DNA of 64,000 nt from Paracoccaceae bacterium (GTDB lineage Bacteria > Pseudomonadota > Alphaproteobacteria > Rhodobacterales > Rhodobacteraceae). The stretch spans positions 61,262 through 125,261 of the forward strand of contig JASMHC010000013.1 of the NCBI GenBank assembly GCA_030750975.1, written 5' to 3'. Below, piece by piece: positions 9,242 through 14,914 of this stretch. A program made the translations under genes and the position numbers. The notes under the pieces were generated by a model, which worked only from the letters and a program-made list of their open reading frames with translations, was not told the DNA's origin and did no database searches. Position 1 is the first letter of the stretch. Each line of letters starts with the position of its first letter.

Positions 9242-12200
9242 ATGAGCCGTTTCGCCGCCCCGATTGCCGAGCAGATTTGGGATATGAAATACCGTTTCAA
9301 ACAAGCGGACGGCACCCCTTTGGATCAAACGGTCGAGGATACCTGGCGGCGGATTGCCCGGTCTTTGGCCGTGGTCGAAAACGACGCCGGACTGTGGGAA
9401 GAAAAGTTCTATCACGCGCTTGAAGATTTCAAATTCCTGCCCGCGGGCCGGATCACCGCAGGGGCGGGCACCGACCGCCGTGTGACCCTGTTCAACTGTT
9501 TTGTCATGGGCACGATCCCCGACAGCATGGGCGGAATTTTCGACATGTTGAAAGAGGCCGCTTTGACCATGCAGCAAGGTGGCGGGATCGGCTATGATTT
9601 CTCGACCATCCGCCCCAAGGGCGCGGATGTGATGGGGGTTGCGGCGGATGCCTCGGGGCCTTTGTCGTTCATGGACGTGTGGGACGCGATGTGCCGCACG
9701 ATCATGTCGGCGGGCAGCCGTCGCGGGGCGATGATGGCGACGATGCGCTGTGACCACCCCGATATCGAGGATTTCATCACCGCCAAATCCGATGCCGCGC
9801 GTTTGCGGATGTTCAACGTCTCGGTTCTGGTGACGGATGCCTTCATGGAAGCGGTGAAAGCCGACGGCCCGTGGGAGCTTGAGTTCGGCGGCAAGGTTTA
9901 CCACACGGTCAATGCCCGCGATCTGTGGAACAGGATCATGCAGTCAACCTATGACTACGCCGAACCGGGGGTGATCTTCATCGACCGGATCAACGCGGCG
10001 AACAACCTAGGCTATGTTGAAACCATCGCGGCGACCAATCCTTGTGTGACGGCCGAAACCTGGGTGCAAACCGACAAAGGGGCACGGCAAGTTTCCGACC
10101 TGATCGGCGTTCCGTTCACGGCCATGGTCGATGGCAAGCCATTTGCCAGCGGGGTTCAGGGTTTTTTCCACACAGGTCACAAATCTGTAAAACGCCTGCG
10201 AACAAAATGCGGACGCGAGCTTTGCTTGACACCAGATCACAAGGTCCGCCGCGTCGTGCGGCAAACCCGGTGGCGGGTTGAAACCGAATGGCAACCTGCT
10301 AACAGGCTTTTTGCAGGGGATTGGGTGGTTCTGCACGACCACAAACCGGCGGATATTCCCGTGCAGAAAGGCGATGAGCTGGGCTATCTGCTTGGTTTGC
10401 TGATCGGCGATGGCGTGATCCGCGATGATAAAACGCTTTTGTCTGTGTGGCCCAACAAGATGCAGGTGAATGGTGCGCACCAAGGCTCGGCCGTCATGGA
10501 CGAAGTAGAGAACCTGCTGAAGGCGCTTCCGCACCGGTCTGATTTTCGCGGTTGGCAAGCGGTTGCGGGACGTGGCGAATATCGTATCGGCACGGCGGCA
10601 CTTACCGGGCTTGCGCGGCAATACGGAATGCGCCGAGGGCACAAGACCCTGACGCCGGAGATCGAGAAAGCAACGCCGGAGTTCTCGGCCAGCGTATTGC
10701 GTGGGTTGTTTGATGCGGATGGTTCCGTACAGGGAAGCCAGCAAAAGGGCGTGTCTGTGCGATTGGCGCAAAGCGACGCCGAGATGTTGCAGGCGGCCCA
10801 GCGGATGTTGGCGCGATTGGGCATAAACAGCACGCTGTATCGAAATCGGCGCCGTCAGGGTGTGTCTGCTTTGCCTGACGGCAAGGGCGGGTATCAGGAC
10901 TATGACATCAAGGCCCAGCACGAACTGGTTATTTCGGGCGACAACCTGATCCGGTTTGATGCGGTTGTCGGTTTCACGGATAGCGACAAATCCAATGCTT
11001 TGAAGGAACGGCTGGCCGGCTATCGCCGTGCTCTGAACCGTGATCGGTTTGTTGCCCAGATCGAGGCGATCGAGGATGGCGGCACCGAGGACGTGTACGA
11101 TGTTCAGGTGCCGGGGGTGAATGCTTTTGATGCCAATGGCCTCTACGTTCATAACTGCGGCGAACAGCCCTTGCCGCCCTATGGCGCTTGCTTGCTGGGG
11201 TCGGTCAACCTTGCGCGTCTGGTGAAAAACCCGTTTGAGGCGGATGCGGACCTTGACCCTGCGGCGCTGAACGATCTGGTCGCCACGGCGATCCGGATGA
11301 TGGACAACGTGGTGGATGCGTCCAAGTTCCCGCTGCCTCAGCAGGAACAAGAGGCCCAAGCCAAGCGCCGCATCGGGCTGGGTGTCACAGGGTTGGCGGA
11401 TGCGTTGCTGATGACGGGCTTGGAATATGGCACCGATGAAGCGGCCGCGAAAACCGAGGAATGGATGAAGGCGATTGCGCGGGCGTCCTATCTGGCGTCG
11501 GTGGAGCTGGCCAGGGAAAAAGGGGCGTTTCCGCTGTTTGACGCCGAACCCTATCTATCCTCCGGTAACATGGCGCAGATGGATGATGACGTCCGCGAGG
11601 CGATCCGCGAACACGGCATTCGCAACGCACTGCTGACCTCGGTCGCTCCAACTGGGACGATCAGCCTTTATGCGGGCAATGTCTCAAGCGGCATCGAACC
11701 GGTGTTTGCCTATGCTTACACACGCAAAGTGCTGCAAAAAGACGGGTCGCGCACCGAGGAAGAGGTGGTTGATTATGCCGTCCAAATGTGGCGCGACAAG
11801 TTTGGCGATGCGCCCTTGCCCGAGTATTTCGTCAATGCCCAGACGCTTTCGCCCAGTGCCCATGTGAAAATGCAGGCGGCGGCGCAGAGATGGATCGACT
11901 CGTCAATTTCGAAAACCATCAACTGCCCCGAGGACATCAGTTTTGACGATTTCAAGGATGTCTACATGCAGGCATGGGACACGGGCTGCAAAGGCTGCAC
12001 CACCTATCGCCCCAACGACGTGACGGGCAGCGTACTCAGCGTCAGCGAAGAAAAATCCGCCCCCGAAGTGGTGGCCAAGGATGATGACGAACCGATGCAG
12101 CCGCATGGCGATGTGATTTACATGAGCGAACCTCTGGATCGGCCCCAGTCGCTGGAAGGGTCGACCTACAAGCTGAAATGGCCTGACAGCGAACACGCCA

Positions 12201-12649
12201 TCTATCTGACCGTCAACGACATCATCGTCGGCGGGCGTCGGCGGCCGTTTGAGGTGTTCATCAACTCAAAGAACATGGAGCATTACGCCTGGACGCTGGC
12301 GCTGACCCGCATGATCTCGGCGGTGTTCCGGCGGGGCGGGGACGTGTCGTTCGTGGTGGAAGAGTTGAAAGCTGTGTTCGACCCGCGCGGCGGGGCTTGG
12401 GTGCAGGGCAAATACATCCCCTCGATCCTTGCAGCAATCGGCGGCGTGATCGAGCGGCATATGGTGGCGATCGGTTTCCTTGAAGGCGAAGGGCAGGGGC
12501 TGAAGTCAGACCCCAAGGCCGAGGCGATGGCGGTGAACGCTGAAAGCAAACCACGCGGCAAAGCCTGCCCCAGCTGCGGTCAGTTCGACATGCGGATGGT
12601 TGAGGGCTGTATGACCTGCGCCAGCTGCGGGCATTCGAAATGTGGTTAA
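9242..12649 (+). CDS. nrdJ: class II (adenosylcobalamin-dependent) ribonucleotide reductase, intein-containing precursor
   Basis: NrdJ motifs are present. The finger-loop TNP/CGEQPLPPYGACLLGS is split by a 371-aa insert. C-terminal Cys-rich tail CPSCGQFDMRMVEGCMTCASCGHSKCG. Confidence 0.9.
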   Translation: MSRFAAPIAEQIWDMKYRFKQADGTPLDQTVEDTWRRIARSLAVVENDAGLWEEKFYHALEDFKFLPAGRITAGAGTDRRVTLFNCFVMGTIPDSMGGIFDMLKEAALTMQQGGGIGYDFSTIRPKGADVMGVAADASGPLSFMDVWDAMCRTIMSAGSRRGAMMATMRCDHPDIEDFITAKSDAARLRMFNVSVLVTDAFMEAVKADGPWELEFGGKVYHTVNARDLWNRIMQSTYDYAEPGVIFIDRINAANNLGYVETIAATNPCVTAETWVQTDKGARQVSDLIGVPFTAMVDGKPFASGVQGFFHTGHKSVKRLRTKCGRELCLTPDHKVRRVVRQTRWRVETEWQPANRLFAGDWVVLHDHKPADIPVQKGDELGYLLGLLIGDGVIRDDKTLLSVWPNKMQVNGAHQGSAVMDEVENLLKALPHRSDFRGWQAVAGRGEYRIGTAALTGLARQYGMRRGHKTLTPEIEKATPEFSASVLRGLFDADGSVQGSQQKGVSVRLAQSDAEMLQAAQRMLARLGINSTLYRNRRRQGVSALPDGKGGYQDYDIKAQHELVISGDNLIRFDAVVGFTDSDKSNALKERLAGYRRALNRDRFVAQIEAIEDGGTEDVYDVQVPGVNAFDANGLYVHNCGEQPLPPYGACLLGSVNLARLVKNPFEADADLDPAALNDLVATAIRMMDNVVDASKFPLPQQEQEAQAKRRIGLGVTGLADALLMTGLEYGTDEAAAKTEEWMKAIARASYLASVELAREKGAFPLFDAEPYLSSGNMAQMDDDVREAIREHGIRNALLTSVAPTGTISLYAGNVSSGIEPVFAYAYTRKVLQKDGSRTEEEVVDYAVQMWRDKFGDAPLPEYFVNAQTLSPSAHVKMQAAAQRWIDSSISKTINCPEDISFDDFKDVYMQAWDTGCKGCTTYRPNDVTGSVLSVSEEKSAPEVVAKDDDEPMQPHGDVIYMSEPLDRPQSLEGSTYKLKWPDSEHAIYLTVNDIIVGGRRRPFEVFINSKNMEHYAWTLALTRMISAVFRRGGDVSFVVEELKAVFDPRGGAWVQGKYIPSILAAIGGVIERHMVAIGFLEGEGQGLKSDPKAEAMAVNAESKPRGKACPSCGQFDMRMVEGCMTCASCGHSKCG
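10043..11155 (+). mobile_element. intein (371 aa) with LAGLIDADG homing-endonuclease domain, in frame within nrdJ
   Basis: Starts with Cys (CVTAETWVQT). Block B is LTPDH. LAGLIDADG motifs LLGLLIGDGV and LRGLFDADGS. Ends LYVHN, followed by Cys+1. Confidence 0.9.
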
Positions 12650-13846: not shown

Positions 13847-14914
13847 ATGGGGACGAGCTTTCGTGGCACGTTCGTCATCTCCTGGTCGCAAACTGAAGTG
13901 GACGGTCTGAGGGCCGGAACACTTCAGTCGTTAATGACAGGATCGGTTTGGTCCTGGCGGGGTGAGGCAGTGCGCGTGGATGGTCCGCATGGCGTGCTCA
14001 GCCTGACCGGCGCGATGGGAGAGACAGAAACCCGTGAACGGGCGGCGAAGGCCGTGCGCCGTTTGGTCGGCGCCGCCGTCTCGGGCATGGCCTTGCCTCT
14101 GGAAGAGGTCGACAGCGACATCCCGCGCGATGAAAGCAGCTTTGTCGTCACCGACGGCAAGCGGGCCTATACGATCACCATAATCGAATTGGGCGAAAGC
14201 GGCGCGCGGCTGTTGATGTTTGTCGATTGCATCCCGCCGGCCAATACCGATCTGTGGATCGTCCATCATTCGTTGAAGGAACGCGAAGTCACCCGTCAGG
14301 TGACTGATGCGGGCGGGGTGATCTGTTTTACACCGGGCACGATCGTCGACACGCTTGACGGGCGTATTCCGATTGAACATCTGCAAGAGGGCGATCTGGT
14401 GCTGACCAAGGATAACGGTCCGCAGGAAGTGCAATGGATCGGCCGCCGCCGCATGACCGGTGCGCGTCTGTTTGCCATGCCGCATCTGCGCCCGATCCGT
14501 ATCCGCTCGGAATCGCTGGGCGTGCTGCGGCCGGATCAGGAATTGCTGGTCTCGCCCGAGCACCGGATTTTGCTGCAAGGCCCGCTGGCACGGGCGCTGT
14601 TCAACACGCCCGAGGTGCTGGTTTCCGCGCAGGAACTGGTGAACGGCAAGGATGTGTTCGTGGATCACGCCTTGAAGGAAGTCACCTATATTCACGTTTT
14701 GCTGCCCCGGCACGAAGTGGTCTGGGCCAATAACGTGGAAACCGAAAGCTTCCATCCGGCCAGTGCTTCGCTGAGCACTTTGGATGACAGCGACCGCGAG
14801 CGTCTGCTTTACTGGATGCCCGAGATTGGCCATGATCCGGATTATTACGGCGATCTGGCCCGTCGGGCATTGACCCCGGCAGAAGCGGCCCTTCTAAGCC
14901 AGGGCGTGGCGTGA
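13847..14914 (+). CDS. Hint-domain (bacterial intein-like, BIL) protein with an uncharacterised N-terminal region
   Basis: Hint module from Cys160 (CFTPGTIVDTLDGRIPIEHLQEGDLVLT) to ...HEVVWANNVETESF. No homing-endonuclease domain and no recognisable host enzyme. Confidence 0.75.
   Translation: MGTSFRGTFVISWSQTEVDGLRAGTLQSLMTGSVWSWRGEAVRVDGPHGVLSLTGAMGETETRERAAKAVRRLVGAAVSGMALPLEEVDSDIPRDESSFVVTDGKRAYTITIIELGESGARLLMFVDCIPPANTDLWIVHHSLKEREVTRQVTDAGGVICFTPGTIVDTLDGRIPIEHLQEGDLVLTKDNGPQEVQWIGRRRMTGARLFAMPHLRPIRIRSESLGVLRPDQELLVSPEHRILLQGPLARALFNTPEVLVSAQELVNGKDVFVDHALKEVTYIHVLLPRHEVVWANNVETESFHPASASLSTLDDSDRERLLYWMPEIGHDPDYYGDLARRALTPAEAALLSQGVA

Follow-up and report, generated by a model that had tools for sequence, protein, structure and literature searches.

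The 64,000-nucleotide stretch of DNA analysed here (the window, to whose positions all coordinates refer) contains a class II ribonucleotide reductase (RNR) gene, nrdJ, that is interrupted at 10043-11155. We interpret this insert, with a probability of roughly 0.93, as a canonical class-1 intein that bears a LAGLIDADG endonuclease and whose point of insertion in the native chromosomal nrdJ directly precedes the thiyl-radical cysteine. As a new example at a long-known RNR intein site it is ordinary, and it appears to be a host-adapted, long-term resident from an old and widely dispersed allelic intein family, not a recent arrival.

The nrdJ gene and its exteins

The ORF at 9242-12649 (+ strand) encodes a class II NrdJ of 1135 aa, and removal of the insert, 371 in-frame codons, leaves joined exteins of 764 aa; the boundaries and lengths proposed in the initial annotation are confirmed. 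The ORF scores 574.8 bits against the NrdJ equivalog model TIGR02504 (cut-off 399.95) and matches the RNR barrel in Pfam (PF02867, E 4e-126), and the best solved structure for it is that of T. maritima NrdJ (1xje, E 7e-85). In the 1xje alignment N266, C268 and E270 (spliced numbering) align with T. maritima N320, C322 and E324, and C86 and C279 align with the redox Cys pair C134 and C333. The functional roles of these T. maritima residues we take to be established RNR knowledge, according to which Cys322, in TNPCGE, is the thiyl-radical cysteine. The equivalog model, the RNR barrel and the aligned active-site residues together place the protein among the class II, adenosylcobalamin-dependent, RNRs.

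The N-extein (9242-10042, +; NrdJ aa 1-267) comprises the RNR all-alpha domain and the start of the barrel, includes Cys86 (LFNCFV), and ends ...ETIAATNP. The C-extein (11156-12649, +; aa 639-1135 and the stop codon) begins with Cys+1, the thiyl-radical cysteine of TNPCGE (codon TGC, 11156-11158, +), and carries E270 and C279 (spliced numbering, by alignment to T. maritima 1xje), a TSCPD domain and a C-terminal tail rich in Cys. A divergently transcribed DUF1489 gene adjoins nrdJ and is conserved as its neighbour in 66 of 80 related loci, 64 intein-less ones among them, which indicates that the window nrdJ is the native gene. Searches of the window with tblastn found neither a second RNR alpha gene nor a second copy of the intein, and scanning the full window for Rfam families and tRNAs gave no matches, including none to a riboswitch upstream of nrdJ. 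A 450-aa ORF running antisense over the intein (10007-11359) was rejected as a gene; it is not conserved, and its frame is the codon-aligned antisense frame, in which GC3-rich homologues have open stretches of varying length.

Splicing and endonuclease domains

The complete class-1 intein, with its nested LAGLIDADG homing endonuclease, corresponds to precursor aa 268-638 (371 aa; 10043-11155, +). The N-terminal half of the HINT splicing domain covers intein aa 1-104 (10043-10354, +; boundary approximate), of which aa 1-69 are matched by the intein N-terminal model TIGR01445 (25.5 bits, cut-off 24.5). It opens with CVTAETWVQT, the block A Cys1 lying at 10043-10045 (+), and block B, LTPDH, occupies intein residues 62-66 (10226-10240, +) and supplies T63 and H66. 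The homing-endonuclease domain follows at intein aa about 105-335 (10355-11047, +; PF14528, E 1.9e-25), with LAGLIDADG motif 1, YLLGLLIGDGV, at residues 115-125 (10385-10417, +; D123) and motif 2, LRGLFDADGS, at residues 219-228 (10697-10726, +; D226). The C-terminal HINT part, with blocks F and G, takes up intein aa 336-371 (11048-11155, +). The intein C-terminal model TIGR01443 (20.1 bits, cut-off 15.6) matches residues 350-371, which read DVYDVQVPGVNAFDANGLYVHN and are followed directly by Cys+1. The intein ends ...GLYVHN, with penultimate His370 and terminal Asn371, and the junction with the C-extein reads ...VYDVQVPGVNAFDANGLYVHN|C, the His-Asn and Cys+1 arrangement of a class-1 intein.

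Pfam LAGLIDADG_3 (E 1.9e-25) and Intein_splicing (3.5e-11) both match the insert above their gathering scores, PF14890 reaches 43.6 bits (cut-off 35.8), and NCBIfam models of intein-containing RNR, DnaB, RecA and GyrA match it as well; in a PDB sequence search the C-terminal HINT part matches DnaB mini-intein chains. An AlphaFold model of the intein (pLDDT 89.9, pTM 0.89) is beta-strand throughout residues 1-97. Its top Foldseek matches are the endonuclease-containing inteins TliVMA, PI-PfuI and PI-SceI, with further matches to the mini-inteins 1am2 (Mxe GyrA) and 4oz6, so that the model, the Foldseek matches and PF14890 all identify a HINT fold. For the inner domain Foldseek finds a match in fold to I-DmoI (E about 3e-7); with its two helices and D123 and D226, this domain has the makeup of a two-motif monomeric LAGLIDADG endonuclease.

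Across an alignment of 35 homologues C1, T63 and H66 of blocks A and B are invariant or nearly so, both LAGLIDADG motifs are conserved, and so are D123, D226, H370-N371 and Cys+1, all of them present in the window copy. Degeneration is evident in a few homologues, P0044 having GGG and DAAG in place of its endonuclease motifs and P0087 and P0105 having no His-Asn. At position 61, two residues ahead of the block-B Thr, the window copy has Cys, in contrast to the Arg or Lys of the homologues. Assembly yielded one and the same 1135-aa ORF in each of four independent data sets, two of them JGI metagenomes, one an NCBI MAG and one a Logan run. The earlier description of a full-length LAGLIDADG intein with intact catalytic residues is therefore borne out by the Pfam and NCBIfam models, the structural matches and the residues themselves; each motif it quoted lies where it had been placed, and the profile matches put these motifs far beyond chance.

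The insertion point and intein-less alleles

The insert splits the host motif as TNP|CGE, and its removal restores TNPCGEQ in a gap-free alignment with T. maritima NrdJ, with Cys+1 on C322. Both the recreated motif and the identity of the +1 nucleophile with the radical cysteine had been predicted in the initial annotation, and the latter agrees with Dassa et al. 2009 (PMC2677866), who likewise describe an integration point before the thiyl-radical Cys. RNR inteins were rightly called an established class. The special interest that had been claimed for this site is unwarranted, as the position just before the radical Cys is where RNR inteins are most frequently inserted (Dassa et al. 2009, PMC2677866).

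Eighty related genomic nrdJ genes were compared for presence or absence of the intein. An uninterrupted TNPCGE without the 371 aa was found in 64, among them the alleles with the closest exteins (Ruegeria, 88%), and in the remaining 16 the same TNP|CGE junction is occupied by an allelic intein. The insert is accordingly not a domain conserved in all close NrdJ homologues, the outcome that had been named as fatal to the intein interpretation; it is an in-frame insertion that orthologues lack and whose excision rebuilds the host motif, as expected of a class-1 intein. In intein-less roseobacter nrdJ the insertion point reads ACCAACCC|TGCGGCGAGCAG, and the empty alleles share a highly conserved 60-bp target around it. 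Allelic copies are present in intact ORFs of two cultured isolates, Thalassococcus sp. BH17M4-6 and Pseudaestuariivita rosea H15 (L001 and L002).

Family distribution, composition and selection

More than 300 homologous inteins were found in metagenomes, from many phyla, with 38-65% identity among the 120 matches listed, and a (T/L/V)NP|CG junction is present in 22/22 of the metagenomic homologues that were read. The insertion point and the homology to described inteins place the window element in the family of inteins at the RNR thiyl-Cys site. Because the protein-database search covered proteins of up to 650 aa, a range that leaves out full-length precursors such as that of L001, the closest relative was taken from scans of genomes and metagenome contigs, and is 65% identical to the window intein. 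A search of metagenome contigs for near-identical inteins, which would be a sign of recent transfer, gave none above 57% identity. As to a possible carrier, a phage collection yielded distant class I RNR inteins alone (up to 34% identity), and IMG/VR a single 37-residue block-G match.

GC3 was found to be lower in the intein than in the exteins (0.644 vs 0.750, chi-square p = 2.8e-4), as had been estimated by eye, and the sliding GC3 profile falls within the intein boundaries. The suggestion that this dip marks a recent horizontal arrival did not hold up and was rejected. The intein lies only 1.4 SD under the mean of the window genes (0.702, SD 0.042, range 0.595-0.776; 35 ORFs taken as genes), and intein GC3 is below extein GC3 in 14/15 other hosts and tracks host GC3 (r = 0.88). 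This recurring gap, together with the tracking of the host, points to adaptation of the intein to each host combined with a stronger codon bias in nrdJ itself.

Purifying selection acts on both the splicing and the endonuclease domains. A comparison of the window copy with L001 gave dN/dS values of about 0.11 (HINT domain) and about 0.12 (endonuclease domain), which are rough since dS is saturated, and conservation is alike in the two domains (49.8% identity in the endonuclease vs 49.5% in the splicing domain). The four contigs encoding the identical protein differ by at most 1 nt and gave no information on polymorphism-based dN/dS.

In a neighbour-joining tree of the exteins (without support values) the window, L001 and L002 fall on separate branches among intein-less roseobacter alleles. 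Intein identity barely follows extein identity (r = 0.13), and in the closest pair dS is far higher for the intein (about 3) than for the exteins (0.92), both being saturated estimates. At -2, Asn is encoded by AAT in 12/17 intein-bearing alleles and in 7/64 empty ones (Fisher p = 2.7e-6, uncorrected for phylogeny), a bias that would fit co-conversion of the flank. The empty alleles, the patchy distribution, the intein/extein discordance and the AAT bias thus lend indirect support to homing in this family, whereas the window intein itself, with its 65% nearest relative, no viral carrier and host-adapted composition, shows no sign of recent homing.

These features raise the question of whether the element might be a splicing-competent intein whose endonuclease is dead or has no targets, that is, a fixed, vertically inherited passenger late in the homing cycle and no longer mobile. 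The divergence from the nearest intein would fit such a state, as would the lack of a near-identical copy in another host, the phage collection and IMG/VR results and the host-adapted GC3, and decay of the endonuclease does happen in the family, as in P0044. The window copy, however, retains the catalytic Asp pair and both LAGLIDADG helices, its endonuclease matches the splicing domain in conservation and in dN/dS, and close relatives offer many empty targets in a patchy distribution on the extein tree. We consider loss of mobility possible but rather unlikely.

Proposed splicing and homing pathway

Splicing and cleavage by the window intein are activities that we infer from its sequence. The 1135-aa precursor would be translated and would reduce no nucleotides before splicing, because its TNP|CGE finger-loop motif is split by 371 residues. 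Cys1 would carry out an N-S acyl shift on the bond between Pro267 and Cys268, and the resulting thioester would be attacked by the +1 Cys, the future radical cysteine, to give a branched intermediate. Cyclisation of Asn371, helped by His370, would release the intein, and an S-N shift would leave a normal peptide bond between the exteins, with active NrdJ of 764 aa and the free intein, about 41 kDa in mass, as the predicted products. Either the free intein or the precursor may then cut intein-less nrdJ, as a site-specific endonuclease, at ...ACC AAC CCN|TGC GGC GAG CAG..., and repair templated by the intein-bearing allele would copy the element in (homing). The intact ORFs in cultured isolates and the purifying selection support protein splicing indirectly. 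A proline at -1 is unfavourable for splicing and counts against our interpretation; in work attributed to Evans et al. 1999 splicing of the allelic Mth RIR1 mini-intein in E. coli is reportedly poor when the native Pro-1 is present.

The same junction could be read as a conditional switch, in which splicing is gated by redox, through a Cys1-Cys+1 or Cys1-Cys61 disulfide, or is slowed by Pro-1, such that NrdJ maturation and B12-dependent dNTP supply would respond to the environment or the cellular redox state; the intein would then be more than a parasite. Both splicing nucleophiles are Cys, Pro is at -1, and Cys61 is an unusual, lineage-specific residue of the window copy. Redox-responsive splicing is known for other inteins, such as that of mycobacterial DnaB (PMC6195587), and the A. 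aeolicus R2 intein is reported to improve cofactor loading (PMC8772380). Nevertheless, no feature of the sequence demands regulation; Cys1, Cys+1 and Pro-1 are imposed by the TNP|CGE site and common to every allele, and most close relatives have no intein, which argues against a needed regulatory role. We regard a regulatory function as improbable. Finally, direct evidence of splicing is not something that sequence alone yields, but the idea that NrdJ keeps the 371 residues as a stable accessory domain without splicing them out, or that they arose as an artefact of assembly or annotation, is effectively refuted by an insert that splits the invariant TNPCGE active-site loop, has every intein block and matches to intein and LAGLIDADG models, is absent from 64 relatives, and recurs in the same ORF from four independent data sets and as allelic copies in cultured isolates.

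The interpretation as an intein has consequences for annotation: 'intein-containing nrdJ' is the proper label for the gene, in place of 'LAGLIDADG endonuclease' or an oversized RNR, and the intein must come out before RNR phylogenies are built or RNR abundances estimated. The window copy adds a full-length, apparently intact roseobacter-group member to a large allelic family. Since close relatives include carriers of both empty and occupied alleles, this family could serve for study of the homing cycle in marine Alphaproteobacteria. The window copy could also supply a new Cys/Cys intein or LAGLIDADG specificity for engineering. Our understanding of inteins and RNRs is unchanged by this copy.

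Relationship to known inteins

The closest parallels are the RIR1 alleles of InBase, which share the junction, the radical Cys as +1 nucleophile, the class-1 Cys1 / His-Asn / Cys+1 residues and the LAGLIDADG endonuclease, and from which the window copy differs only in sequence and in host lineage, an uncultured roseobacter-group alphaproteobacterium. The Pyrococcus-type model of intein-containing RNR, NF006207, aligns unbroken over the intein/C-extein junction. The Mth RIR1 mini-intein of the Methanothermobacter class II RNR, which we take to have the same TNP|CGE site, native Pro-1 and Cys+1, differs in being an archaeal 134-aa mini-intein without an endonuclease domain; it is used in pTWIN vectors.

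The SPbeta (SPBc2) bnrdE intein is a full-length homologue (26% identity, E 3e-21) that begins CVTGET... and ends ...GN|CSE, has a LAGLIDADG endonuclease, and sits at SNL|C, the equivalent thiyl-Cys position, although it has Leu at -1 and a penultimate Gly where the window intein has Pro and His, and its host is a prophage class Ib NrdE with a group I intron (Lazarevic et al. 1998, PNAS 95:1692). The split inteins NrdJ-1 and NrdJ-2 from GOS metagenomes also lie in the class II RNR active-site loop (Dassa et al. 2009, PMC2677866), but one residue further C-terminal; a free-standing endonuclease gene divides them, and they lack a nested LAGLIDADG domain. More distantly, PI-PfuI, PI-SceI and TliVMA (1dq3, 1vde and 7qsu), of which PI-PfuI likewise comes from an RNR gene, are larger (matched chains of 361-454 residues), occupy different host sites, and at 13-16% identity were missed by the PDB sequence search; they nonetheless share the two-domain HINT and LAGLIDADG architecture with the window intein, whose model they match in Foldseek at E 1e-17 to 4e-13 and TM 0.56-0.65.

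The nrdJ precursor carries a full-length intein at the thiyl-radical cysteine

The nrdJ gene of the window is a single open reading frame of 1135 aa (9242..12649, + strand), and the initial annotation proposed that it is interrupted by a LAGLIDADG intein. From the ORF listing and translation, the boundaries (10043-11155, + strand), the 371 in-frame codons, the 764 aa of the joined exteins after in silico removal of the insert, and the quoted motifs all proved exact to the base. The intein begins with Cys1 (CVTAETWVQT, from precursor residue 268), and is read through block B LTPDH (intein residues 62-66), the motifs YLLGLLIGDGV (115-125) and LRGLFDADGS (219-228), and a C-terminal block ...DVYDVQVPGVNAFDANGLYVHN (350-371), directly followed by the TGC codon for Cys+1 (11156-11158), with the C-extein running from residue 639.

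The precursor matches the NrdJ equivalog model TIGR02504 with 574.8 bits (cut-off 399.95), and Pfam identifies Ribonuc_red_lgC (E 4e-126), Ribonuc_red_lgN and TSCPD. The spliced protein aligns with Thermotoga maritima NrdJ (1xje; E 7e-85) gap-free across the junction, placing the +1 Cys on Tm Cys322 (1xje chain numbering), the Asn two residues ahead of it on N320, the Glu two residues beyond it on E324, and spliced C86 and C279 on C134 and C333. By established RNR biochemistry, Tm C322 is the thiyl-radical cysteine and the counterpart of C439 in Escherichia coli NrdA, and the intein is thus located at this cysteine in a class II RNR.

Tested alone, the 371 aa match Pfam Intein_splicing (43.6 bits, cut-off 35.8) and LAGLIDADG_3 (E 1.9e-25), exceed the cut-offs of both NCBIfam intein_Nterm and intein_Cterm, and also match NCBIfam models of intein-containing RNR, DnaB, RecA and GyrA. 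A PDB sequence search gave matches limited to the C-terminal splicing block of DnaB mini-inteins. A confident AlphaFold model built from 35 homologues (pLDDT 89.9, pTM 0.89) has homing-endonuclease inteins as its top Foldseek matches, namely TliVMA (7qsu, E 1e-17), PI-PfuI (1dq3, 3e-16) and PI-SceI (4e-13). For the inner domain, Foldseek gives I-DmoI, a free-standing LAGLIDADG enzyme, and for the outer domain mini-inteins including Mxe GyrA. The profile and structural matches agree on a full-length LAGLIDADG intein, and therefore on an architecture of HINT-N (~1-104), LAGLIDADG endonuclease (~105-335) and HINT-C (336-371), all on the + strand. By every defining feature that can be read from sequence, the element belongs to the class-1 intein, LAGLIDADG and thiyl-Cys-site RNR intein families.

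Both activities of the intein appear to be preserved

The catalytic residues had been described as intact, and all conserved positions of a 35-member family alignment are indeed present. T63 is invariant in this alignment, C1, H66, D123/E123, D226, H370 and N371 are nearly so, and the window intein keeps C1, T63, H66, D123, D226, H370 and N371. Visibly degenerate homologues exist, with the endonuclease motifs reduced to GGG and DAAG in one (P0044) and the His-Asn lost in two others (P0087 and P0105), and intactness of the window copy is therefore informative. Mean identity to the window is 49.8% for the endonuclease domain and 49.5% for the splicing domain, and Nei-Gojobori dN/dS for the closest pair, the window and Thalassococcus sp. 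BH17M4-6, is ~0.11 for HINT and ~0.12 for the endonuclease, both rough values as dS is saturated. These comparisons argue that splicing and endonuclease activities have both been under purifying selection during divergence, and we infer that the window intein would splice and cleave.

Cys61 of the window intein (10223-10225), two residues ahead of the block-B Thr, differs from the 34 other aligned homologues, which mostly have Arg or Lys and none Cys; a further Cys is at residue 56 (10208-10210).

Empty and occupied alleles are consistent with repeated homing

The relatives compared come from a scan of one genome per species, which yielded at least 596, and we kept the best 80. The insert is not a conserved domain of all close homologues, as 64 of the 80 have an intein-less nrdJ of ~2.28 kb with an uninterrupted TNPCGE; the other 16 have an nrdJ of ~3.4 kb with a 371-382-aa insert exactly at TNP↓C...HN↓CGE (arrows mark intein junctions). 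The nearest exteins among the kept relatives are intein-less (Ruegeria arenilitoris, 87.9%; Ruegeria sp. EL01, 87.6%), and the nearest intein-bearing ones are Thalassococcus sp. BH17M4-6 (extein 85.4%, intein 65.2% identity) and Pseudaestuariivita rosea H15 (84.3% and 56.6%). A redox-gated, conditional splicing that controls NrdJ maturation is very improbable, as nothing in the data requires such gating and the intein is absent from most close relatives.

In a neighbor-joining tree of exteins (computed without support values), the window, L001 (the Thalassococcus locus) and L002, another related nrdJ locus, lie on three separate branches amid intein-less roseobacter alleles, and intein and extein identities are nearly uncorrelated over the 16 intein-bearing alleles (Pearson r = 0.13). 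Between the window and L001 dS is 0.92 for the exteins and ~3 for the intein, with a difference in the same direction in three further closest pairs, although stronger extein codon bias can depress extein dS. The -2 Asn codon (10037-10039) is AAT in 12/17 occupied versus 7/64 empty alleles (Fisher p = 2.7e-6, phylogeny ignored), even in hosts that use AAC almost exclusively elsewhere, and empty sites mostly have AAC; this enrichment could be a trace left by co-conversion during homing, or else a target-site preference. Jointly, the tree placement, identity discordance, dS and -2 codon are consistent with homing that occurred repeatedly, with short co-conversion tracts, and was followed by long residence. 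Intein copies in genomes reach at most ~65% identity, and the search of metagenome contigs gave nothing above 57%. No viral carrier was found either, and there is no sign of a recent homing event.

Lower GC3 is a general property of the intein

GC3 had been thought lower in the intein and to fit horizontal arrival. The first part holds, with 0.644 in the intein versus 0.750 in the exteins (chi-square p = 2.8e-4) and a drop that coincides with the intein boundaries. As a sign of recent arrival it is rejected, because intein GC3 is also below that of its own exteins in 14/15 other hosts, and the value is within the range of the 35 window ORFs taken as genes (mean 0.702, SD 0.042, range 0.595-0.776), from whose mean the intein is 1.4 SD lower and the exteins 1.1 SD higher. 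Intein GC3 also tracks host GC3 over 0.58-0.87 (r = 0.88). A lower GC3 in the intein is thus general, reflecting a strongly codon-biased housekeeping gene versus a weakly selected passenger, and the intein's composition is adapted to each host. Apart from this GC3 inference, the initial interpretation is supported.

The nrdJ locus

The window nrdJ has a divergently transcribed DUF1489 gene as its neighbour, which also adjoins nrdJ in 66 of the 80 kept loci, 64 of them intein-less, and the nrdJ context is native and chromosomal. The identical ORF was independently assembled in two JGI metagenomes, the NCBI MAG GCA_030749945.1 and one Logan run. The NrdJ C-terminal region (12182-12646, + strand) has a TSCPD domain (aa 981-1074) and then a Cys-rich tail CPSCGQFDMRMVEGCMTCASCGHSKCG that resembles the zinc-finger-type tail described in many class II RNRs.

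A gene 1.2 kb downstream of nrdJ (13847-14914, + strand) encodes a 355-aa protein that carries a Hint_2 domain (PF13403, Hedgehog/intein-like fold); at the sequence level, no similarity between this protein and the intein is detectable. A homologue (57% identical) also follows the intein-less nrdJ of one kept relative (L071), and the Hint_2 gene is therefore independent of the intein. A 450-aa antisense ORF spanning the intein (10007-11359, - strand) is not conserved, and the codon-aligned antisense frame in which it lies is open for 113-375 codons in GC3-rich homologues; the ORF is best explained as a compositional artefact. No Rfam family reaches its gathering threshold in the whole 64-kb window, and the region 5' of nrdJ in particular lacks a cobalamin riboswitch and any other known RNA element; there are no tRNA or tmRNA genes in the 64 kb.

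Comparison with known inteins

The protein collection contains more than 300 homologues of the intein at E ≤1e-5. Among the 22 that were read, every junction-containing one is flanked by (T/L/V)NP↓C...HN↓CG; they span Gamma-, Beta- and Alphaproteobacteria, Nitrospirae, Desulfobacteria, Firmicutes, Chloroflexi, Patescibacteria, an actinobacterium and an archaeon, and their host proteins include monomeric-type NrdJ. All matches listed are ≤650 aa, and full-length precursors of ~1130-1230 aa such as L001 are missing, so that the nearest relatives of long precursors are under-reported by this search. One related intein (P0095, 42% identity), a 420-aa Ruegeria hyattellae protein annotated as 'LAGLIDADG family homing endonuclease', is flanked by ...FIVNP↓C and HN↓CG, and its N-terminal extein is short and dissimilar. 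The protein may represent a fragment or, in this other roseobacter, a fractured RNR-like gene.

The thiyl-Cys integration point is the most frequent RNR intein insertion site (Dassa et al. 2009, PMC2677866). The window intein is a well-preserved member of a well-known kind, in a host lineage (an uncultured roseobacter-group bacterium) from which such an element had not been discussed specifically, and its practical value lies in correct annotation and as a possible system for study of the homing cycle. NF006207, a model of Pyrococcus-type intein-containing RNR, aligns without a break over the intein/C-extein junction. The SPbeta prophage bnrdE intein, known since 1998, gives a full-length alignment with the window intein (26% identity, E 3e-21) and is at the equivalent position (SNL↓CVTGET...GN↓CSE) of a class Ib enzyme. 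The widely used Mth RIR1 mini-intein, which is reported to splice poorly with its native Pro-1, presumably occupies the same TNP↓CGE site.
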